From positions 1 to 24,546 of the forward strand of contig JAGLPV010000009.1 in assembly GCA_023137195.1 (NCBI GenBank): a stretch of 24,546 nucleotides of DNA. The letters run 5' to 3'. Below are positions 65 to 22,407 of the stretch, in pieces. The notes below the pieces were generated by a model that saw nothing but the letters and a program-made list of their open reading frames with translations, had not been told where the DNA came from and searched no databases. The stretch is from Candidatus Aenigmatarchaeota archaeon. Lineage in GTDB: Archaea; EX4484-52. Within the stretch, counting starts at the first letter, position 1. The number at the start of each line of letters is the position of its first letter. The translations under genes and the position numbers were made by a program.

Positions 65-2944
65 TTACTTATCCTCCGTTCTGTGGACAGGACCGGATTT
101 TTTAACTTTCTCAGGAATGTCTTCAAATTTGGAAATATTTTTAGAGAACAAAGCCGCCAGCTCCTTTGCCTTTTTTTCATAAAGTTCTTTATCTTCCCAT
201 AGGCTTTTTGGATTTAGCACAGCATCCTCAACACCCGGACAGCTTTTTGGAACCATCAGGTTAAATATTTCATCCAGGACAAACTCAACATCTTTCAAAT
301 CCCCTTTTATCGCCGCATTGACCATCGCCCTGCTGTATGGAATACTAATTCTCTTACCGACCCCATAAGGTCCGCCAACCCACCCTGTATTTACGAGGTA
401 AACATCTGTGTTATGATCAGTGATATATTTTTCCAATAAAGAAGTATACACATTTGGTTTATGTGGCATAAACGGTTCGCCAAAAAACATAGAGAATACA
501 GCGACAGGTCGGACAATGCCCTGTTCAGTTCCTGCCAGTTTGCTCGTGTACCCGGAAATGAAATGATACATCGCCTGATTTTTGTCTAATTTAGCAATGG
601 GAGGCAGGACGCCAGAAGCATCAGCAGTCAAAAAGATTATCGTTTTTGGATGCCCTCCAATGCCGTCGACTTCTGAATTATCTAAATGTTCTATGGGATA
701 TGCAACTCTTGAGTTTTCAGTATGCCTGTCGTCGCTAAAATCAAATTCAAGTGCATCATCCAGGACAACATTTTCAACAACAGCCGCATTCTTTATTGCC
801 TTATGAATCTGCGGCTCTTTTATAGGGCACAAATCAATGCATTTTGCATAACATCCTCCTTCAATATTAAATACCCCGGCAGGAGACCATCCGTGTTCAT
901 CATCTCCAATCAGTTTTCTGGTGACATCTGTTGACAAAGAGGTTTTACCTGTGCCGGACAACCCCAGGAACAAGGCAACATTTCCTTCTTTATCTGTATT
1001 TGCAGAGCAATGAAGAGGCAATATTCCTTTCAGCGGAAGAAAGTAATTCATGACTGAAAAAACAACTTTTTTAATTTCCCCAATGTATCTTGTACCGCCG
1101 ATGATGGCAATTTTTTTCTCTAGGTTTATCAGAATAAATGCTTCTGAATTAATATTGTGGACAGAAGAATCCGCCTCACAATGTGGCGCACAGATAAGCG
1201 TGAACTCCGGTTTGTAGGTTTTTAATTCCTCTTTTGTCGGTCTTCTCAATAGGTGTATCATGCTCAAATTTTGACTGGCTAATTCATTGATGACTCTCAC
1301 ATTCATCGAATGCTTCTTATCGGCTCCGGCAACCCCGTCGCAGACAAAGACTTCTTCTTTTTCGCCCAGGTATTTCGTGATTTTTTCATACATTTTGTCG
1401 AAATCTTCAACATCGATAGGCACATTTATATCACCCCAGTGGATTTTGTCATGAACAGAGGGAGTGTCTACTATATATCTGTCGTTAGGCACCCTTCCTG
1501 TGTATTTTCCGCTAAGGACACGTAAGACACCGCTTTTGGAAAGAATTCCTTCTTTTCTCTCAACAGCTTTTTTAACAAGGACATCTGCATCCACATTATG
1601 GTATATTTTTCCTTTTGTCTTTATCCCTATATCTTCTGTTATATTATTCTCCCCTTCAACCATTCTTTTACACACAGTGTAAACATTATCGAACAATTCC
1701 GGCAGCAATTCCTTTTTTACAGAAGAATAAGAAACTCTCAACAAATCGCCTATTGAAATCAACCCGGTGCTGTATTCATCAAGCAGAAGTTTCCTGACCT
1801 TGTTTGCATCCAGGTTATTTTTTAATTTCACGCACATAAAGTACCCGGAATTAAATGGCAATGCCTCAAAATATTGCCTGTACTCTGTATGTTCTTCAAG
1901 AATTTTTACAACTCCATCATATCTACTCTTCAAAAGCCCATATTTCTCTTTTTTCTCCAACCAATAAGAATCAGATTTCATTGCCTCAACTATCAAGGTT
2001 TGCGACAGGTTGCATGCATTTGACACATTTCCACGGACAGCACCACCCGTTTTGGATTCAAGCACATTGCATATTTCAGGAGTCATATCTTTACATCCAT
2101 AAGTCATAAATCCAACTCTCAGTCCCCAGACATAGTCTTCCTTTGTAGCCCCGTCAATTTTAACTGCCAGGACATTTTCCCCGATATCGCATAATTTTGA
2201 AAAGAGTGATTCAGTATATATTCCCTTTTCATAGACAAGACCAAAATAAGCATCATCTATTATTACAACAATATTCTTTCCCAAATCCGCTGATTTTTTT
2301 ATTGCCGCAACTATTCGCTCAACCTCTTCATCAGATGGCGTAAACCCGGACGGGTTGTTTGGAAAATTCAAAACAAGAATTTTTTTAGTGCCTTCAGAAT
2401 TTAATTTTTCTTCCAGTCCCGCAACATTAAACCCGTTATTTTCAAAACAGGGAAAGGTAGTTATCTTCCCGCCATACGCATTTTCATACACCAGTTTATA
2501 ATTACCCCAGAATAAATCCGGCATAATCACTTGGTCGCCTTCATCTACGAACAAATACCCTGCAATGCTAAGAGCATGTGTCAGCCCGTTAGTTACAACA
2601 GGATTTGAAATCAAAGGAGCAACAAGTGAAGGATTTTTTTTAAATATCATCTCCTTCCATTTAGTTCTCAAATCATCCCTTCCAAAACTGGGAGCATAAG
2701 GAAATACAGTCCCCGGCGCAAGCGAAATATTTTTTTCAATTGATTTCAATCGCATCGGGCTGTTGTCATCTTCAACAGCAATTCCAATTGTCGCATTTAT
2801 TTTTTTCCCTTGAGCTTCTTTTGATTGTGCTAATATCCCTTGCTTTGGAAAAAATATAGATTTACCTTTTAATGAGAGCATGTCTAAAATAGCAATATTG
2901 GATTTCTCCAACAAGCTATTTAGCTCGATTGCCTGTGGATTCAT
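65..2944 (-). CDS. pckA: Fusion: N-terminal class I/II PLP aminotransferase (aspartate transaminase-like, ~1664-2944) + C-terminal ATP-dependent phosphoenolpyruvate carboxykinase (~65-1642)
   Basis: N-half has NFPNNPSG, DDAYFGL and KIDGATKEDYVWGLRVGF (PLP lysine); from memory it resembles the staphylococcal aspartate transaminase family. C-half has YTGR, IGGTRYIGEIKK, HCSAN, P-loop GLSGTGKTSLS, LIGDDEHGW and FNIEGGCYAK. Start moved from GTG 2953 to ATG 2944 because AGGTG (2951-2955) is an SD 6 nt upstream. Confidence 0.93.
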   Translation of the reverse strand: MNPQAIELNSLLEKSNIAILDMLSLKGKSIFFPKQGILAQSKEAQGKKINATIGIAVEDDNSPMRLKSIEKNISLAPGTVFPYAPSFGRDDLRTKWKEMIFKKNPSLVAPLISNPVVTNGLTHALSIAGYLFVDEGDQVIMPDLFWGNYKLVYENAYGGKITTFPCFENNGFNVAGLEEKLNSEGTKKILVLNFPNNPSGFTPSDEEVERIVAAIKKSADLGKNIVVIIDDAYFGLVYEKGIYTESLFSKLCDIGENVLAVKIDGATKEDYVWGLRVGFMTYGCKDMTPEICNVLESKTGGAVRGNVSNACNLSQTLIVEAMKSDSYWLEKKEKYGLLKSRYDGVVKILEEHTEYRQYFEALPFNSGYFMCVKLKNNLDANKVRKLLLDEYSTGLISIGDLLRVSYSSVKKELLPELFDNVYTVCKRMVEGENNITEDIGIKTKGKIYHNVDADVLVKKAVERKEGILSKSGVLRVLSGKYTGRVPNDRYIVDTPSVHDKIHWGDINVPIDVEDFDKMYEKITKYLGEKEEVFVCDGVAGADKKHSMNVRVINELASQNLSMIHLLRRPTKEELKTYKPEFTLICAPHCEADSSVHNINSEAFILINLEKKIAIIGGTRYIGEIKKVVFSVMNYFLPLKGILPLHCSANTDKEGNVALFLGLSGTGKTSLSTDVTRKLIGDDEHGWSPAGVFNIEGGCYAKCIDLCPIKEPQIHKAIKNAAVVENVVLDDALEFDFSDDRHTENSRVAYPIEHLDNSEVDGIGGHPKTIIFLTADASGVLPPIAKLDKNQAMYHFISGYTSKLAGTEQGIVRPVAVFSMFFGEPFMPHKPNVYTSLLEKYITDHNTDVYLVNTGWVGGPYGVGKRISIPYSRAMVNAAIKGDLKDVEFVLDEIFNLMVPKSCPGVEDAVLNPKSLWEDKELYEKKAKELAALFSKNISKFEDIPEKVKKSGPVHRTEDK

Positions 2945-2955
2945 AAATAACACCT

Positions 2956-3966
2956 TTATAGATCCATTGCCCTGTCCGTCATCGCTATACTTTCATCTGC
3001 ATCTTTTGTTAATTCAAACATCGCCCGTATGCAGTCTATATTTTCAGGCACAACATCTGATTCCTGGTGTATTGCCTGTATATAAAATAATTCATTTCCA
3101 ATTACATTGATGCTTTCATCCCACACAGCAATTTCATTAAGGTCTCCTCTTTTTCTCCCTAAATCTCTTGCGTGCTCCATAATTTCCGCGGTAGATGTAA
3201 TGCCTTCACTTGCCTTCACAAGAATAATTCGTGGTGTGCTTTTGAACAATTGTTTTATTTCCGCTGTTGTTGCAGGATTATTCATTTCAACAATAACTGT
3301 ATGAAGATGCATAAGTGTTGTAGGAACAATCACAGCAGAAGTCATGATGTCCATGTCAGGAAAAATTGTATTAACATCCGGTCCGTGATGGCTTGGAACT
3401 GTAACCGGATTAGGAACAATAGCATTTACTGGTCCTTTTTTGGAATTACCTGGGTCTGGTCCTCTCCTGATTAATGTCACTCTTGCCTTTTTGACACCAT
3501 ATTTTTTCTCAACAGCTCCAATAGTTCTGCAAAGCCCTGTTGTATTGCATGAGACCACTCGCACATAATCTTTACCCAAACAGGTCGCATAATTGCCCTG
3601 CGCATTAAAAGACACATCTCCTGTGCCTGATTTCTCGCCACCCTGGAAAATTGCCTTCACTCCTTTAGATTCATAAAGAGGCCTATTCATAGCCCCTATT
3701 TTGCCGGGAGTACAGTCAACAATAACATCACATTTATCAAGTAAATCATCAAGAGTGCCGGAAATTTCAAACCCTTCATTGATGAAAGTCTGCACATTTT
3801 CCATGTTGTTGGCATATAAGGCATACTCATTTTTTATCGCATGTCTCGCCTCATGAGTTGGTCTTGTCTTTACTACACCCACAACTTCCATATCCGGTTG
3901 TTTTGCTACTGCATCTGCTACTCGCTTGCCTATAGTTCCGTATCCATTTATTCCTACTTTTATCAT
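2956..3966 (-). CDS. gap: Glyceraldehyde-3-phosphate dehydrogenase, archaeal type II (phosphorylating)
   Basis: INGYGTIGKRVADAV, catalytic VSCNTTGL, PSHHGPDV, IHQESDVVPENID; SD GAGGAG upstream of ATG. Confidence 0.97.
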   Translation of the reverse strand: MIKVGINGYGTIGKRVADAVAKQPDMEVVGVVKTRPTHEARHAIKNEYALYANNMENVQTFINEGFEISGTLDDLLDKCDVIVDCTPGKIGAMNRPLYESKGVKAIFQGGEKSGTGDVSFNAQGNYATCLGKDYVRVVSCNTTGLCRTIGAVEKKYGVKKARVTLIRRGPDPGNSKKGPVNAIVPNPVTVPSHHGPDVNTIFPDMDIMTSAVIVPTTLMHLHTVIVEMNNPATTAEIKQLFKSTPRIILVKASEGITSTAEIMEHARDLGRKRGDLNEIAVWDESINVIGNELFYIQAIHQESDVVPENIDCIRAMFELTKDADESIAMTDRAMDL

Positions 3967-3999
3967 TTTATCTCCTCTTTAATGAACATAATTAACTAT

Positions 4000-5235
4000 T
4001 CAACTGACTCTTGTAATCAAAGTGCTGTATTTTTTTGCTGAATTTACCAAAGCATCAACGCCGGGAAGACTTTTCCCTGAAATATACAATATAAATGCGC
4101 CGCCGCCTGTTGAAAAATGATCCATCTTGTCCAGCAAACCCATTTTTTCTGCCGCGATAGAAGAATCCCCTCCTCCGATGACAGCAAATGCTTTGCTCTC
4201 ATGCATTGCGTGAAAGAGCTCTTCAGTGCCCAGGGCAAATTGTTCTTTTTCAAATACACCTGCCGGTCCGTTACCCACGACAGTTCCCGCACCATCAATA
4301 ATCTCTTTATATAATTTGATTGTTTTCTTGCCAATATCCAATATTGGATAATCACTGGGAAGTGCCGAAAAAGGAATCTCCACTCTTTTTCCTTCTACTT
4401 CAATTGCAAAATCAATAGGCATCACAATCTTGTCCTTGTATTTTTTTAAAATTTTTTTTGCACTTTTAATTTCTAAATCTGCTTTTTTGTCAACCAAAAC
4501 ACTATGTGTTGCATTGCCAATATAATCCCCGTTTGCCGCTAAAAAAACCATAGAGACAAGCCCTGATGTAAGCACAGTATCCACTGCATCATTAGACAGC
4601 ATTTTTTCAATCACCATAATTGAATCATCTACTTTTCCTCCCCCGAGGCAAAGCACAGAAGGTCTCTGTGGATTTTCCATAAGTTTTGTCAATACCTCAA
4701 GTTCTTTTTGCAGTATTCTACCGGCAAAGGACGGTAAAACAGCAGGAAACCCAATCAAAGAGACATGTTCTCTATGATTCACAGCAAATGAATCATTAAC
4801 ATAATAATCAAAAAGACCGGACAATTCACGAACCATATGCGTTTTATGATGATCTTTTTTGACAGCAGTCTCTTCCACGGAAAATCTTACATTTTCCAGC
4901 AATATTATATCTCCTTTTTCCATCTCCTTGATGGACTTTTTTGCATAGCTTCCAAAAATATCGTCAATATATTTGACATCTTTTTCTATGTGCTTTGACA
5001 GGAGCTCAGCATGCTTTTCAAGGCGAATAAAATCATCGCCATTTAGCCTCCCCTGGTGGGCAAGGATAACAACCTTGGCTCCTTTATCAGACAACTCTTT
5101 TATGGTCTTTGAATGATGTTTTATCCGTATATTATCCACAGGTTCTTTATTTTCATCCACTCCTGAATTTATATCTGTTCTTACCAAAATGGTTTTCCCA
5201 TCAACTTCAAAATCATCGATAGTCAAAAAATGCAT
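4000..5235 (-). CDS. pgk: Phosphoglycerate kinase
   Basis: VRTDINS, AHQGR, LLENVRF, LGGGKVDD, NGPAGVFE, IGGGDS, HFSTGGGA. Confidence 0.97.
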   Translation of the reverse strand: MHFLTIDDFEVDGKTILVRTDINSGVDENKEPVDNIRIKHHSKTIKELSDKGAKVVILAHQGRLNGDDFIRLEKHAELLSKHIEKDVKYIDDIFGSYAKKSIKEMEKGDIILLENVRFSVEETAVKKDHHKTHMVRELSGLFDYYVNDSFAVNHREHVSLIGFPAVLPSFAGRILQKELEVLTKLMENPQRPSVLCLGGGKVDDSIMVIEKMLSNDAVDTVLTSGLVSMVFLAANGDYIGNATHSVLVDKKADLEIKSAKKILKKYKDKIVMPIDFAIEVEGKRVEIPFSALPSDYPILDIGKKTIKLYKEIIDGAGTVVGNGPAGVFEKEQFALGTEELFHAMHESKAFAVIGGGDSSIAAEKMGLLDKMDHFSTGGGAFILYISGKSLPGVDALVNSAKKYSTLITRVS

Positions 5236-5238
5236 AGT

Positions 5239-6033
5239 CTAATTGCCTCCATTCCCATTCCCTATATGCGTCCATCTACCGTCATAGACATAACCTGCCA
5301 GTTTTCCTTCATTGCAAAGGTTTGTGAATATATTTTCAAGCATGATTTTATTGTCTTCATGAGGAAGAAGTTCCAGTAATCTTGGCTCAATTATGAACAG
5401 CCCTGCATTTATCAAATGACTTGGAGATTCTTCAGCAGATGGTTTTTCTATAAATTTAGTGATTTTTTCTCCCTTTAATTTTACTACCCCGTAAGAACTT
5501 GTATCTGTTGAAGTAGTAAGTGCCATAGTAACGGTTGCCTTATGATTCCTATGAACTTTCAGCATATCATTTACATCGACATTGAATAAAATATCCCCGT
5601 ATAAAAGCATAAAAGTATTATTTATCATCCCCTTGGCTGATTTTAAAAAACCAACTGTCCCGAGAGGTTCATCTTCAATAATATACCTTATATTAATATC
5701 ATATTTTGTTCCTTTCCCAAAATAAGATATTATCTTATCATAATTATAATTTACAATCAAAATAATATCTGTAATGTCCTGCTTTTTTAAATATTCTATT
5801 GTATGTTCCAAAGCAGGTTTTTTATCAATAAGTGTCATTGCCTTGGGAGTTTCATCTTTATTCCCCCCGCAAAGAATAACTGCCTGGTTAAGACATTCTT
5901 CATTCATAGCTTTTAGCAAAAGCTTCTCTATCGCGTGCGACCTGTTCTTTATGCTGTATCCATTCACTCTTTTATCCAGCCAGCGAATCAAATTTTCATC
6001 TAAAGTTATAGATATGTGTTCTTTATTAGTCAT
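5239..6033 (-). CDS. Ribbon-helix-helix DNA-binding domain fused to a degenerate sugar-phosphate nucleotidyltransferase domain; putative regulator
   Basis: Residues 1-45 (HISITLDENLIRWLD...NRSHAIEKLL) fit the CopG/Arc/MetJ RHH pattern. The rest has NTP-transferase motifs AVILCGG, EDEPLGT, YGDIL, YGVV, FIEKP, INAGLFI. SD GGGAG 6 nt upstream. Confidence 0.85.
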   Translation of the reverse strand: MTNKEHISITLDENLIRWLDKRVNGYSIKNRSHAIEKLLLKAMNEECLNQAVILCGGNKDETPKAMTLIDKKPALEHTIEYLKKQDITDIILIVNYNYDKIISYFGKGTKYDINIRYIIEDEPLGTVGFLKSAKGMINNTFMLLYGDILFNVDVNDMLKVHRNHKATVTMALTTSTDTSSYGVVKLKGEKITKFIEKPSAEESPSHLINAGLFIIEPRLLELLPHEDNKIMLENIFTNLCNEGKLAGYVYDGRWTHIGNGNGGN

Positions 6034-6161
6034 ATTTATCTCCCGTTTAATGTATTATATTAGGTTGTATATATTTTTCAAATCGTAATACTTTGTGTTA
6101 TAAACAAGAGTTATGTTTAAAAAACTATCGAATGTAATAATCTATTAGTTGGTGAGATAAC
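6034..6161. promoter_or_regulatory. Divergent promoter region between the RHH-pgk-gap-fusion operon and gdh
   Basis: Minus strand has BRE/TATA-like GAAAAATATATA (6068-6079); plus strand has TTTAAAAA (6117-6124) and SD GGTGA (6151-6155). GTA(A/T)TA boxes at 6052, 6085 and 6134. Confidence 0.55.
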
Positions 6162-7409
6162 ATGACAGAAAAAATAAATCCTTATGAAGACGCTCTTAAT
6201 CGTCTGAGCGAAGTAGCTGAAAAATTCAATATAGCTGAAAAAGATATTGAGATACTAAAACACCCTAAAAAAATATTGATGGTTAATTTCCCTGTTCATA
6301 CAAGCAAAGGACTAAAAATCATTAATGGATACAGGGTCCAGTACAATGATGCTTTAGGACCCACAAAAGGCGGTCTGAGATATCACCCTCACGTTGATAT
6401 CGAAGAAGTCAAAGCCCTTTCCTTCTGGATGGCATTAAAAAATGCAGTCCTTGATCTGCCTTACGGCGGAGCAAAAGGAGGCATAACAATAGACCCGAGA
6501 GAATACACAAAAGAGGACCTGGAAAAGATAAGCAGGGAGTTCATAAGGCAGATTCATTTATTTATAGGACCCCAGATAGATATTCCTGCTCCTGATGTTT
6601 ATACAACCCCCCAGATAATGGCATGGATGATGGACGAATACAGCAAGATAAAAGGAAAGCACGTTCCCGGAGTGATTACAGGAAAACCATTGTCTGTCGG
6701 CGGAAGCTTAGTGCGTTCGTACTCCACTGCAATGGGCGGCTTTTGTGTGTTGAGAGAAGCACTTGCAAAATACAAGATAAACCCTCTTGAAACAAAAACC
6801 GCAGTACAGGGTTTTGGAAATGCCGGTATGAATTTTGCAGAAATAATGAAAGGACAGAACATGAAAATAGTTGCAGTAAGCGACAGTAAGGGTGGTGTTT
6901 ACAATGAAGAAGGATTAAACATAGAAGCATTGGTAAAGCATAAAAAAGACACAGGAACTGTAGTTGATTTCCCTAGCGCAAAAGCAGTAACAAACAATGA
7001 GCTTTTGGAATTAAATGTTGATATTTTAGTTCCCGCAGCACTTGAAAATGCAATTACCGAGGCAAATGCAGGCAACATAAAAGCAAAAATAATTCTTGAA
7101 CTGGCAAACGGACCTGTTACCCACAAGGCAGACAAAATGCTTTATGAAAAAAACATAGTTGTTTTACCCGACATTCTTGCAAACGCCGGCGGAGTGACAG
7201 TATCTTATTTTGAATGGATACAGAATCTTTACGGTGACAGATGGACTGAAGAGGAAATATTAAAGAAACTGGACAGTAGGATGAAAAAAGCATTTGACAA
7301 CCTGTACGACAATTACGTAACTCAGTCATATGTTGATTTCAGAACAGCCGCTTATGCATATGCAATAAAAAAAATAATTGAAGCAGAAAAAGACAGGGGT
7401 CATATTTAA
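6162..7409 (+). CDS. gdhA: Glutamate dehydrogenase (Glu/Leu/Phe/Val dehydrogenase family)
   Basis: GPTKGGLRY, LPYGGAKGG, IPAPDV, TGKP, QGFGNAG, ELANGP, PDILANAGGVTVSYFEW. Confidence 0.96.
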   Translation: MTEKINPYEDALNRLSEVAEKFNIAEKDIEILKHPKKILMVNFPVHTSKGLKIINGYRVQYNDALGPTKGGLRYHPHVDIEEVKALSFWMALKNAVLDLPYGGAKGGITIDPREYTKEDLEKISREFIRQIHLFIGPQIDIPAPDVYTTPQIMAWMMDEYSKIKGKHVPGVITGKPLSVGGSLVRSYSTAMGGFCVLREALAKYKINPLETKTAVQGFGNAGMNFAEIMKGQNMKIVAVSDSKGGVYNEEGLNIEALVKHKKDTGTVVDFPSAKAVTNNELLELNVDILVPAALENAITEANAGNIKAKIILELANGPVTHKADKMLYEKNIVVLPDILANAGGVTVSYFEWIQNLYGDRWTEEEILKKLDSRMKKAFDNLYDNYVTQSYVDFRTAAYAYAIKKIIEAEKDRGHI

Positions 7410-10330: not shown

Positions 10331-11833
10331 TTAATTATCATTTCCAAGAATTGTAAACTCTGCTTCTTTTTCAGTTGAATAATAATAATCTACTGTGACT
10401 TCTATGATTATTTCTTGTGTCATTTCTGGTGCAGTACTGGTAAAATCATCTCCTTTTAGTTTCTCTTCAGCCTCTTCATGTTCTTCTTCACCACCATCAC
10501 CAGGACCAACACCCGTTTGTGTTACTACATAACTACGATCTAAGAAAAAACAGCCTTTCTTATCTTTGGTTTTATTCCAGGCTTTAAAATCAAATACATT
10601 TTCAGAATAATCTATCTTAAAATAACCGTTTTCTCCCCACCAACTGCCCCAGCTGTTTTTGCACAGCCAGTAGCTTTTAATGTCATTATAGCCTATAATA
10701 GATATCGCATGCGTTCCAGTATAAGTTCCTGTTGGATTATTATAAATTCCGCTGGAATAAAAATCAAAATTATCATAAACAACCATATATGCTATTACAG
10801 GACCATAATCCTTTATGGCCTGTTTGATCGCATCAGCCGATGCAGGAAGTTTTTCATAATTCACAACATTTATCATGTTGTCTTTCCAATTCAGGCATTT
10901 TTCACATACATATTCTTCAATACAATCTTTGCCTGTTGAATTCCAATCTTTACAGCCAAGATAAGAAAAACAACTTTCGTCAACAATTCCTTTATTTTTA
11001 ATATAATTCAACGAAAGTTTTGGAGAACCACCATCACAATTACCCGCATCACTGCATGAAACCAGAGTCTGTTCAGATAAATCAATATCATAATCAGGAT
11101 TGTTTAATTCTATTTTTCTTCTTGATTCAACAGCAGATATTGTTGTAAATGCCCAACAGGAACCACAAGCCCATTGATTCTTTACTGGAGTGACCCAGTC
11201 ACCACCATTATCTCTCCAGTCAAGAGAAGGAGGATAATCATATCCGCCCAAAGCCGCTATTTTTGTAGTTTTTTTCTCTTCATCATCTACAATCAAATCA
11301 TCCTTAGGTAAAAACCCATCTCCTTTAAACAAAGGCTCATTATTAGCATCCATCAACTCCAAAACAGGAATCTCTTTAGTCTCTGTAGTTTTCACACCAA
11401 GGGCACCACCCTCTGGAGCATCAGCAGGAACTACACACACAGCATATTTATATGTCGCCGAACCTATTTGTTCACTAATATATTTTGTTTCATATCCTTT
11501 TTTGGCGCAATAAGAATAGTCTTTGCCGCATTTTCCCCTAAAGAAATCCCATGCATTGCATTTAAATCCATCATTAAATACACACAACCCATAAGAAGAT
11601 TCATCTGTCCGGACAATTTCATATTCATATCCAAGATTCTGGCAATAAACAGCAGCAGGATTTGCAAAACCCATTGTTTTTTCCAAAGGCGCATCATCTT
11701 TTGGCTCTGTCGCATACACAATATCAGTGTCTGTCGAAAACAAACTAATAATATTTGGTCCTGCAAATACAACGCATACAATCAGCAAAGCAGTTGTTAC
11801 AATCAGAACATCATCATTTGCTTTCAAATCCAT
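10331..11833 (-). CDS. Secreted or membrane-anchored papain-family (C1A) cysteine protease with DUF333 domain
   Basis: N-terminal hydrophobic helix; DUF333 pattern ANPAAVYC..LGY...C.F.DG..C.AWDFFRG.C; LDWRD, VTPVKNQWACGSCWAF, DLSEQ, THAISIIGY, KNSWG..WGENGYF. Confidence 0.93.
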   Translation of the reverse strand: MDLKANDDVLIVTTALLIVCVVFAGPNIISLFSTDTDIVYATEPKDDAPLEKTMGFANPAAVYCQNLGYEYEIVRTDESSYGLCVFNDGFKCNAWDFFRGKCGKDYSYCAKKGYETKYISEQIGSATYKYAVCVVPADAPEGGALGVKTTETKEIPVLELMDANNEPLFKGDGFLPKDDLIVDDEEKKTTKIAALGGYDYPPSLDWRDNGGDWVTPVKNQWACGSCWAFTTISAVESRRKIELNNPDYDIDLSEQTLVSCSDAGNCDGGSPKLSLNYIKNKGIVDESCFSYLGCKDWNSTGKDCIEEYVCEKCLNWKDNMINVVNYEKLPASADAIKQAIKDYGPVIAYMVVYDNFDFYSSGIYNNPTGTYTGTHAISIIGYNDIKSYWLCKNSWGSWWGENGYFKIDYSENVFDFKAWNKTKDKKGCFFLDRSYVVTQTGVGPGDGGEEEHEEAEEKLKGDDFTSTAPEMTQEIIIEVTVDYYYSTEKEAEFTILGNDN

Positions 11834-20867: not shown

Positions 20868-21122
20868 ATCCACGGAACGCACGGATGCGATAAAATCTCT
20901 ATGATTTTCTGCACATTCAATTTCATTGAATGACACACAAGAACCCACAGAACCGTTAAAATTATAGAGATTACAAAAAACAAAAAGTATTCTATTATCT
21001 CTTCACAAGAGGTAATAATAACTTAAATTGAGTGTGACCAGACTGTTTTTTATAGAGTGAACCAAAAATGCAATTTTTTTCTCCCCTTTTTCCCTGTGTC
21101 TTCTTGTGCGTTCCTGTGGATT
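20867..21122. repeat. Intergenic element bounded by imperfect terminal inverted repeats, with several internal hairpins (MITE/REP-like or structured RNA)
   Basis: Left AATCCAC-GGAACGCACGGA (20867-20885); right end (21102-21122) reverse-complements to AATCCACAGGAACGCACAAGA. Internal stems of 15, 8 and 11 bp. Confidence 0.65.
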
Positions 21123-22302
21123 AGTATTCCCCGATAATAAAGCAATGGTCTTTTTCAAGAGGGTCAAGATTTTTCCAGTCAAGTATTTTGAAATGCTTTT
21201 TTAACTCATCCAAAGCATAATCATATACTTCATATGGATTTTTTGTAGAATCAACAGACCGTGCCTTTAAAGCCAGCATAAACCGACCTTTTTTTTTCAG
21301 GAACAGTTTTGCATTCCTTATCAAAATATCAATCTGGTCTTTTTGTGCGACATCTTCAAAAATAATATCTACTTTGGAAACAAGATGGGCGTAATTGCCG
21401 GGAAGTTTTGCATTGTCGTATATCGGGACAATGTTATTTCTCTTGTGCATCTTTATGACAGAGAGCAGGTTCTGTATCGGCTTGAATGCAAATTCAACAC
21501 CGTAAATCAATCCGTTTTCTCCTATTAAATCAGATATATGCGATGCGGTTGTGCCGTCCGCTATGCCAAGATACAATATTTTAGACCCCTGCGGAATATC
21601 CCAGCAGGAAATGCCTTTTTTGATGGCAGCGCCAAGCTTTGATTTTTTCTCGTCCCATGTCCTGAATTCATCATTGCCTTTTTTTATCAGATTTTCAGAA
21701 TAGACCCTAAATCCAGGAGTAAGGCTTTTTGTTGTAAGTCTTCCGCTGATAGAAGAAAAATTAGGATTTGATATTTTGTACTGGGCTATGTTCTCTTTTT
21801 CTTTTTTTGGTTTGAATTTTTGTTTGTCATGGTGGTGTTCAAAGCGTTTTTTGTTTGGCGAGGTCGTTGAAAAGTCTTTATTTGAATCTTCGAAATTGTG
21901 TGATTTTTTCTTGTCGTGGTGGTGTTCAAAGCGTTTTTTGTTTGGTGGGGTCGTTGAATGTCCCTTATTGGAATCTTCAAAATCACGGGATTTTTTCTTG
22001 TCGTGGTGGTGTTCAAAGCGTTTTTTGTTTGGTGTGTTCATCGAGAATCCTTTATTAGAATCTTCAAAATCACGGGATTTGTTTTTGTCATTGGGTTTAA
22101 AGCGTTTTTTGTTTGATGGTTTAGAATGGTTCGTTGAGAATTCTTTATTATAATCTTCAAAAGAGCTGGATTTGTTTTTGTCATTAGGAGTAAAGCGTTT
22201 TTTGTTTGATGGTTTAAATCCGGAATTAAAGGATTTTTTATTTGAATTTTTGAAGTCACCGGATTTTTTCTTGAATTTTGGATTATATCTATTTTCGCCC
22301 AT
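21121..22302 (-). CDS. flpA: Fibrillarin-like rRNA/tRNA 2'-O-methyltransferase with long repetitive N-terminal extension
   Basis: FRTW...KSKLGAAI, ILYLGIADGTTASHISD, YGVEFA, NIVPI, DIIFEDVAQ.DQ, LKARSVD, LDPLEKDH. ATG 22302 preferred over 22341 because a T/A-rich TATA-like tract lies about 25 nt upstream. Confidence 0.93.
   Translation of the reverse strand: MGENRYNPKFKKKSGDFKNSNKKSFNSGFKPSNKKRFTPNDKNKSSSFEDYNKEFSTNHSKPSNKKRFKPNDKNKSRDFEDSNKGFSMNTPNKKRFEHHHDKKKSRDFEDSNKGHSTTPPNKKRFEHHHDKKKSHNFEDSNKDFSTTSPNKKRFEHHHDKQKFKPKKEKENIAQYKISNPNFSSISGRLTTKSLTPGFRVYSENLIKKGNDEFRTWDEKKSKLGAAIKKGISCWDIPQGSKILYLGIADGTTASHISDLIGENGLIYGVEFAFKPIQNLLSVIKMHKRNNIVPIYDNAKLPGNYAHLVSKVDIIFEDVAQKDQIDILIRNAKLFLKKKGRFMLALKARSVDSTKNPYEVYDYALDELKKHFKILDWKNLDPLEKDHCFIIGEY
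21820..22270 (-). repeat. In-frame tandem repeat, about 5 copies of 84-93 bp (28-31 aa)
   Basis: Anchor AAAGCGTTTTTTGTTTG at 21841, 21928, 22015, 22099 and 22192 (spacings 87, 87, 84, 93); encodes NKKRF...DKxKSxxFEDxNK. Confidence 0.95.
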
Positions 22303-22407
22303 GATTAATAATGGATAAAGAAATAATAAAAAGATGTTCATTTTTTTGGGTGTTTTGTATTAACTATCGTGCTTTTGAAAAGTCAGTCCGCAGAAATAAT
22401 ACATATA

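Follow-up and report, generated by a model that had tools for sequence, protein, structure and literature searches.

We analysed a 24.5-kb window of archaeal DNA, which is one entire contig (JAGLPV010000009.1, 24,546 nucleotides) from Candidatus Aenigmatarchaeota, and found four genes in a row on its minus strand: RHH-NT, which encodes a predicted regulator, then pgk, gap and a gene that fuses an aminotransferase to a phosphoenolpyruvate carboxykinase (PEPCK). A glutamate dehydrogenase gene (gdh) diverges from them on the plus strand (Table 1). The genome that holds the window, labelled G000, comprises 1.42 Mb in 57 contigs and is 85% complete. Our preferred reading, to which we give an even chance of being right, is that the locus represents an older self-regulating operon extended recently and in a lineage-specific manner, and that it would lead from aspartate through phosphoenolpyruvate (PEP) to triose phosphate. 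A first-pass annotation had described all five genes as one redox-balanced module between aspartate and triose phosphate. The gene content and the spacers of 3, 33, 11 and 128 nt on which it built were confirmed by the open reading frames (ORFs) and by family assignments. The unit that is conserved, in two families of this DPANN phylum, is RHH-NT-pgk-gap, and the redox-balanced module appears as a local arrangement of one genome, not as a new pathway.

We propose the following scheme. The old core, RHH-NT-pgk-gap, would regulate itself: the RHH head of RHH-NT would bind a 17-bp palindrome between the TATA box and its own start codon, and a sugar-1-phosphate nucleotidyltransferase domain without its catalytic loop would act as the sensor. 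In the window genome, a horizontally acquired fusion would have been added behind gap, with gdh standing back to back with the operon. The aminotransferase half would turn aspartate and 2-oxoglutarate into oxaloacetate and glutamate, and the unstable oxaloacetate would be handed to the fused PEPCK to give PEP. Glutamate dehydrogenase (GDH) would restore 2-oxoglutarate and yield NAD(P)H. Enolase and phosphoglycerate mutase, encoded elsewhere, and then phosphoglycerate kinase (PGK) and glyceraldehyde-3-phosphate dehydrogenase (GAPDH) would carry PEP to triose phosphate, spending that NAD(P)H. The carbon would go into the making of sugars and glycans, and the operon would be turned off by a sugar-nucleotide signal. 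The chemistry claimed at first holds for these steps; the net reaction is Asp + 2 ATP -> GAP + CO2 + NH4+ and is redox neutral.

The core is found in one arrangement across genomes. Of the 15 genomes with an RHH-NT orthologue, 12 carry RHH-NT and gap on one contig and on the same strand, and in 11 of these 12 a pgk-like gene stands between the two. In two further genomes, G035 and G036, contig ends interrupt the locus, and the pieces are compatible with this order. The gap gene of G002 lies on another contig, away from RHH-NT. In the window, the spacers of the minus-strand genes measure 3 nt (RHH-NT/pgk), 33 nt (pgk/gap, with GAGGAG inside) and 11 nt (gap/fusion, counted from an ATG at 2944 with AGGTG ahead of it; from a GTG at 2953 it is 2 nt), and we consider the ATG at 2944 the likely start of the fusion gene. 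Since the spacers are short and carry Shine-Dalgarno-like sequences and no T-run, they point to one transcript.

We next describe the RHH-NT protein of the window, P0001. Its family has members in DPANN archaea, Halorhabdus and one CPR bacterium, about 45 full-length clusters in all, and the N-terminus is conserved (HISITLD, NRSHAIE). Pfam RHH_1 matches 8 of the 14 aligned full-length homologues with a best E of 2.3e-6 (17 were scanned, 3 of them without the N-terminus), and the N-terminus of P0001 can be aligned to homologues with such matches. A structural model (pLDDT 83) shows an extended N-terminal segment and helices at residues 13-23 and 31-45 and then a nucleotidyltransferase fold; the top sequence and fold matches include chains of 7d72. 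A deletion of 7 residues (alignment A3) strips the GxGTRxxPxT loop from P0001 and from P0123-P0126 and leaves GGNKDETPK. The Pfam match of P0001 begins at profile position 20, and the PDB alignments likewise begin past the loop. P0001 thus retains the overall fold and lacks the pyrophosphorylase loop of active sugar-1-phosphate nucleotidyltransferases. The window clade is also without the C-terminal helix. Because the catalytic loop is deleted, we read the nucleotidyltransferase-like domain as a sensor and not as an enzyme; its ligand may be a sugar phosphate or an NDP-sugar. As judged from sequence, the role of RHH-NT as a regulator, predicted to be autoregulatory and of the repressor type, is well supported.

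Many members of the family keep GGxGTRLRPxT, and f6 orthologues carry GGKGQKLKPIT. Among the distant loci with enough sequence on the relevant side, a phosphomannomutase/phosphoglucomutase (PMM/PGM) gene directly follows RHH-NT in 44 of 61, and a GlpX fructose-1,6-bisphosphatase (FBPase) gene directly precedes it in 4 of 63. These neighbours tie the RHH-NT family to sugar-nucleotide supply. The family would illustrate a change from enzyme to sensor, with active-looking members beside phosphomannomutase and the catalytic loop gone in this genus. G002, of the same genus, carries tandem RHH-NT paralogues (G002:C47:3043-3816 and 5108-5851; 64% and 39% identical to P0001).

The operator that RHH-NT would bind is a 17-bp palindrome, GTAATAC-AAA-GTATTAC, located 2-20 nt past a TATA-like box and 13-51 nt ahead of the RHH-NT start codon. 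Twelve genomes of 4 genera carry it without a mismatch, G019 has it with one mismatch and the window with two, and it is absent from G002. By chance, a genome should hold about 0.017 perfect sites; with the reversed pattern as control, each genome had 0-2 sites when up to 1 mismatch was allowed. Between genera, the ungapped flanks are 29-39% identical, compared to 100% for the palindrome. The palindrome is almost unique in each genome, stands at the RHH-NT gene, and its presence across genomes tracks that of the RHH-NT orthologue. In the window, GTAATACTTTGTGTTAT is the sole site with up to 3 mismatches; it lies within the control region of 128 nt (6034-6161) between RHH-NT and gdh, where TTTAAAAAA may act as a promoter for either strand. 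Archaeal repressors typically act just downstream of the TATA box. With 10 bp from one half-site to the other, the palindrome could accommodate a pair of RHH dimers on the same face of the DNA. The claim that the locus has its own regulator is well supported, with a predicted RHH head, a nucleotidyltransferase-like domain and a conserved operator at the regulator's own promoter.

Operator-like sites are also present ahead of other genes. Directly ahead of a canonical nucleotidyltransferase paralogue, G000 has a site with 2 mismatches and G036, G038 and G039 have one with 1 mismatch each. In G000, a site with 2 mismatches lies 39 nt upstream of enolase. In G008, which belongs to another family, the aminotransferase and PEPCK form a pair of genes unlinked to the core, and 32 nt upstream of this pair stands a site with 3 mismatches, the sole such site in 20 kb. 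We set aside as operators the matches with 1 mismatch such as GTAATACAATGTAATAC in g6 genomes, which are direct repeats in non-coding DNA. Repeats of this type occur near a conserved ORF of ~193 amino acids (aa) in G027:C43, G037:C34, G029:C44, G041:C143 and G008:C11, and other pattern matches include perfect sites in G023 and G020. The gene divergent from the nucleotidyltransferase paralogue of G000, with the operator-like site common to both, encodes the alpha subunit of an ADP-forming acetate-CoA ligase (G000:C33, L150:2432-3805, plus strand). About 60 nt upstream of the gene, distant RHH-NT relatives (L152-L230) often have a direct repeat instead of the inverted one, with the form (A/G/C)TCATAC-N3-(A/G)TCATAC, as in ATCATACTTTATCATAC and CTCATACTTTGTCATAC; it may be the older operator form of the family.

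We consider RHH-NT to be an RHH regulator of an undescribed kind, derived from an enzyme and with an operator that is exactly conserved ahead of pgk and gap. No publication on an RHH-nucleotidyltransferase regulator was found in a search by titles and abstracts, a search to which most subscription journals did not belong. DPANN archaea are mostly uncultured and the control of their central carbon flow is almost uncharted, and an exactly conserved 17-bp target ahead of pgk and gap offers a directly testable handle on it.

The second component of the locus, added behind gap, is the fusion. Its PEPCK half matches PF01293 with 664.6 bits (residues 449-910, profile positions 2-464 of 465) and belongs to the ATP-type PEPCKs by NF006820 (754.9 bits against a cut-off of 636, residues 437-956). 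It carries TGRVPND at 485, GLSGTGKT at 664, GDDEHGW at 683 and EGGCYAK at 698, which we take to be the P-loop and the metal or substrate motifs; TGRVPND has Val at a position where relatives carry Ser. The half shares 65% identity with the free G008 enzyme and 56-59% with free bacterial PEPCKs. The aminotransferase half matches PF00155 and is a member of the NF006388/PRK08637 family (522.3 bits against a cut-off of 301), which NCBIfam names merely 'hypothetical protein'. Its motifs NFPNNPSG at 196, DDAYFG at 233 and GATKEDY at 268, the last giving the context of the pyridoxal phosphate-binding lysine, are invariant in alignment A2. The closest solved relative is 2x5f, Sar2028 of S. aureus, deposited as 'Asp/Tyr/Phe aminotransferase' (E 2e-100); it may be the aspartate transaminase of that species.

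We observed the fusion junction (about 1600-1660) in contigs of three further runs, X2, X3 and X4, with 0, 0 and 1 differences and no indel; all three belong to one study, the same as that of the probable source run of the contig. The fusion is thus not an artefact of one assembly. The same protein is also encoded on a contig of 130 kb, and the organism occurs at cold-seep sites. In G008 the two enzymes are encoded by separate neighbouring genes 15 nt apart, 69% (aminotransferase) and 65% (PEPCK) identical to the halves of the fusion, and in alignment A1 the linker corresponds to the last part of the G008 aminotransferase, the spacer of 15 nt and the beginning of PEPCK. A trypsin-like peptidase is encoded near this pair. 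In G001 (same genus, 57% complete), the aminotransferase behind gap ends within the first few linker residues (VEEEINTTKI) with no PEPCK behind it, a state that we read as secondary loss of the PEPCK part. Where PEPCK is missing in G001, a gene for a TrmB-family sugar regulator lies convergent to the aminotransferase (L014:5346-6083, plus strand), and an MFS transporter gene stands after gdh.

To place the fusion among known proteins, we considered the 120 best matches in 5.8 billion proteins. Three of them carry both domains: the query, P0004 and P0005. The PEPCK parts of P0004 and P0005 are 44% identical to that of the window and 38% identical to one another. With 63-67% identity to free Bacteroidota PEPCKs, the P0005 part is nearer to these than to the window PEPCK, and at least two fusions have therefore arisen separately. 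A library clustered at 50% listed no match with both domains, but the cluster of the query was missing there as well; fusions may hide behind single-domain representatives, and the library is not usable as a count. Other members of this aminotransferase family (56-60% identical) occur as fusions with PEPCK_GTP in P0302 (1073 aa), with PEPCK_GTP in reverse order in P0450 (a 570-aa fragment) and with a malate/lactate dehydrogenase in P0303 (761 aa). Since oxaloacetate is common to the three partner enzymes, the aminotransferase should make or use oxaloacetate, and it is very likely an aspartate aminotransferase. Public data also hold a fusion of FBPase to PEPCK_ATP (P0347, 1233 aa).

Among the 80 nearest loci in 185,579 species genomes, PEPCK adjoins the aminotransferase at L049 and at the same-genus locus only. 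Within the phylum, the aminotransferase was found in 3 of 42 genomes (behind gap in 2) and PEPCK in 2 (fused in 1). This scarcity points to horizontal acquisition of the fusion. No publication describing an aminotransferase-PEPCK fusion came up among titles and abstracts, in a search with most subscription journals outside its range. Together with its sister fusions to GTP-PEPCK and malate dehydrogenase, the protein gives a probable function to the widespread PRK08637 group, and such fusions are natural test cases for the channelling of unstable oxaloacetate.

The proposed redox coupling depends on the two dehydrogenases. The gap product is an archaeal type II GAPDH (NF003251, 516.9 bits against 185; TIGR01546, 485.7 against 232.9). 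It aligns with 1cf2, the NADP-bound structure from M. fervidus, at 429.9 bits (E 6e-128), including the catalytic-Cys stretch SCNTTG and VVKTRP, and shares with it the K-T-R-P stretch after the first beta-strand. GDH matches PF00208 and PF02812 clearly and NF040817 at 522 bits, under the cut-off of 750. Its closest relatives are the Thermococcales GDHs 1bvu, 1gtm and 1euz (E 1e-133 to 4e-135; 454.5 bits for 1bvu), with which it has the stretches GxGNAG and AVSDSKGG in common, and these close matches suggest both glutamate as substrate and the coenzyme. We take the reference enzymes to prefer NADP. Both dehydrogenases of the window thus resemble NADP-preferring archaeal enzymes, the cofactors appear compatible, and a 1:1 redox balance is plausible.

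We then looked for the remaining enzymes in the genome. Enolase, two phosphoglycerate mutase candidates, pyruvate kinase and a PEP synthase/PPDK are all encoded, as the proposal of a working route called for. Citrate synthase and an archaeal PEP carboxylase (PF14010, 604.6 bits) are present too. The expectation of a phosphofructokinase (PFK) held in part: there is a PFK-family gene, but the ATP and PPi models each score below their cut-offs. This gene and a class II aldolase-like gene are both divergent. No RuBisCO and no GAPOR were found in the incomplete genome. An aldehyde dehydrogenase (C56) was rejected as a GAPN, its best score being to lactaldehyde dehydrogenase and under every cut-off, and a DeoC-family match was rejected as an archaeal class I aldolase because it is ADH synthase and not an aldolase above cut-off. 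This ADH synthase (TIGR01949, 349 bits, above cut-off) forms one 518-aa protein with an aspartate-kinase-like half (G000:C55, L123:1481-3037, plus strand), possibly a kinase fusion, and the next gene encodes 3-dehydroquinate synthase II (L123:3055-4047, plus strand); the two enzymes make up the archaeal route to aromatic amino acids from aspartate semialdehyde.

Several observations weigh against the preferred reading. On the regulatory side, P0001 itself gave no Pfam RHH_1 match at E <= 0.01, and the window operator is the most degenerate copy. G000 holds 6 sites with up to 2 mismatches and about 13 are expected by chance, so that its extra sites count through their position alone. In 80 more distant metagenome relatives (37-47% identical), pgk and gap do not adjoin RHH-NT, except at L151. 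The complete set of five genes occurs in the window genome only: gdh is present in 28 of the 42 genomes of the phylum and stands beside the operon in G000, G001 and G003, all of one genus, and the G001 locus has the aminotransferase after gap with PEPCK missing. By this synteny, the five genes are not a conserved module. On the metabolic side, no FBPase was found in the 85%-complete genome with PF01950, PF00316 or a GlpX query, so that the fructose-1,6-bisphosphate (FBP) aldolase/phosphatase step sought by the first-pass annotation went unfilled in these searches. The aspartate transporter it looked for did not appear either, as the four genomes of the genus (57-85% complete) contain no SDF, AA_permease_2 (APC-type) or SBP_bac_5 (Opp-type) importer. 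The gap product is the single match to this GAPDH in the genome, and given pyruvate kinase, the PFK-family and aldolase-like genes and the lack of a GAPOR or clear GAPN, pgk and gap must also serve glycolysis. Lastly, the coenzyme used by GDH is not safely readable from sequence.

The regulatory points could be taken to mean that RHH-NT is no transcription factor for these genes and is instead a sugar-nucleotide enzyme, functional or vestigial, that carries a short extension at its N-terminus, the palindrome belonging to another factor or to the promoter. P0001 does fall short of the RHH_1 threshold, and distant members retain the GGxGTRLRPxT loop and precede PMM/PGM like ordinary pathway enzymes. 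However, the catalytic loop is deleted in P0001, its N-terminus aligns with RHH_1-matching homologues and is modelled as an extended segment plus two helices, and the palindrome is near-unique, stands at the RHH-NT gene against a control of 0-2 sites per genome, and follows the orthologue from genome to genome. We regard this alternative as quite improbable.

The synteny bears on a simpler reading without a dedicated module. The core would supply the cell's only PGK and GAPDH in both directions, and the fusion and gdh would adjoin it by chance or through loose co-regulation, without stoichiometric coupling of reductant. This would account for conservation confined to three genes, for the adjacency of gdh in only 3 of 28 genomes that carry it, for the G008 pair on a different contig, for a G001 locus that works without PEPCK, and for one GAPDH in a cell with pyruvate kinase, PFK-like and aldolase-like genes. 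It fits less well with the evidence for one transcript across the fusion (spacers of 3, 33 and 11 nt, Shine-Dalgarno-like sequences, no T-run) and with gdh sharing the 128-nt control region in which the operator lies. The operator-like site at the promoter of the unlinked G008 pair would further make the regulon older than the physical linkage. On this evidence the simpler reading is a possible one, but we doubt it.

The direction of flow was weighed separately. In reverse, triose phosphate would be converted to PEP, PEPCK would fix CO2 and make ATP while forming oxaloacetate, and aspartate would result, with glutamate from GDH, either for biosynthesis or as an ATP-yielding, redox-balanced fermentation. 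Every step is reversible in principle, the fusion would protect oxaloacetate whichever way it runs, and pyruvate kinase and the PFK-like and aldolase-like genes give glycolytic capacity. The cell needs aspartate, as seen from the aspartate-kinase-like::ADH-synthase fusion and 3-dehydroquinate synthase II for aromatic amino acids, and none of the amino-acid importers searched for turned up. Against this, oxaloacetate is already made by the separate PEP carboxylase, the regulator family is linked with genes that supply sugar nucleotides, not with those of fermentation, and an aspartate exporter is not known here. ATP-type PEPCK alongside PEP carboxylase is usually decarboxylating and gluconeogenic, as in E. 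coli. Reverse flow is therefore unlikely in our view. In its energy-yielding form, PGK and PEPCK would give 2 ATP per triose phosphate, CO2 and ammonium would be fixed, GDH would be the electron sink and the fused enzyme would release aspartate; we think this very unlikely. If true, a symbiont would excrete aspartate or pass it to its host, and the process would parallel, with aspartate as product, alanine fermentation in Thermococcales. We favour the decarboxylating, gluconeogenic direction of the preferred reading as the probable one, though it is not proven, and leave the remainder to flow in both directions or in neither. We favour it because the separate PEP carboxylase covers anaplerosis, because the regulator family belongs with anabolic sugar genes, and because a papain-like protease, possibly secreted, is encoded ~3 kb away.

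We compared the locus with known systems. The TrmB-family regulators of Thermococcales (Tgr/TrmBL1) recognise a palindrome near the TATA box of glycolytic and gluconeogenic genes, respond to sugars and bind DNA with a winged helix. One-component regulation in archaea and a palindrome near the TATA box are thus alike, whereas the RHH head and the sensor fold differ and no sequence relation was found. In B. subtilis, the genes downstream in the cggR operon are tpi, pgm and eno, in contrast to the aminotransferase::PEPCK gene here, and the gene order differs too. Both operons have the regulator gene first, gap and pgk inside, and a repeated operator at their own promoter. CggR is of the SorC family; RHH-NT has an RHH head and a nucleotidyltransferase-like sensor at an archaeal promoter (TATA, operator, start), and Pfam gave only PF00483 for it, with no SorC or DeoR domain. 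According to one report, CggR binds tandem operators as a tetramer and FBP lowers the cooperativity (PMC2943609), so that a sugar-phosphate effector tunes cooperative, multimeric DNA binding.

A precedent for a nucleotidyltransferase fold used as a sensor without catalysis is GMPPA, which is reported to be a non-catalytic paralogue of GMPPB that senses GDP-mannose, the pathway product (PMC11228364). GMPPA differs from RHH-NT in being eukaryotic, in having no DNA-binding domain and in regulating an enzyme by direct protein contact. For the metabolic part, a preprint describes a cytosolic GDH2-AAT2-PEPCK route of glutamate utilisation in Pichia pastoris (bioRxiv 10.1101/2021.03.10.434748). There, too, GDH, aspartate aminotransferase and PEPCK carry amino-acid carbon to PEP; in the yeast the genes are reportedly separate and unlinked and control is post-transcriptional, with neither a fusion nor any connection to pgk and gap.

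Table 1 Features of the RHH-NT locus, with positions in the window.
Feature	Position	Strand	Evidence
PEPCK (ATP) domain of the fusion, residues ~447-962	65..1615	-	PF01293, NF006820, motifs
15-residue linker (VEGENNITEDIG...)	1616..1660	-	Alignment A1 with the split G008 pair; read-assembly contigs span it
Aminotransferase domain, putative aspartate aminotransferase	1661..2953	-	PF00155, NF006388, 2x5f
Whole aminotransferase::PEPCK ORF, 962 aa	65-2953	-	
gap, archaeal type II phosphorylating GAPDH	2956..3966	-	NF003251, 1cf2
pgk, phosphoglycerate kinase	4000..5235	-	PF00162, 400.5 bits, full profile
RHH-NT, 264 aa, predicted autoregulator	5239..6033	-	N-terminal ~48 aa, then NTP_transferase PF00483 (residues 50-259)
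Operator-like palindrome GTAATACTTTGTGTTAT	6085..6101	.	2 mismatches to GTAATAC-N3-GTATTAC
A/T-rich TATA-like element TTTAAAAAA between the divergent genes	6117..6125	.	Read from sequence
gdh, hexameric-type glutamate dehydrogenase, divergent	6162..7409	+	PF00208, PF02812

The rest of the window contig also encodes S19e, fibrillarin, an Sm-like protein and TIM. The papain-family cysteine protease (10331-11833, minus strand) is 500 aa long and has an N-terminal DUF333 domain. The fibrillarin ORF (21121-22341, minus strand) has 406 aa, and its Pfam match is limited to residues 197-406, which reflects either a long N-terminal extension or an unused upstream start.

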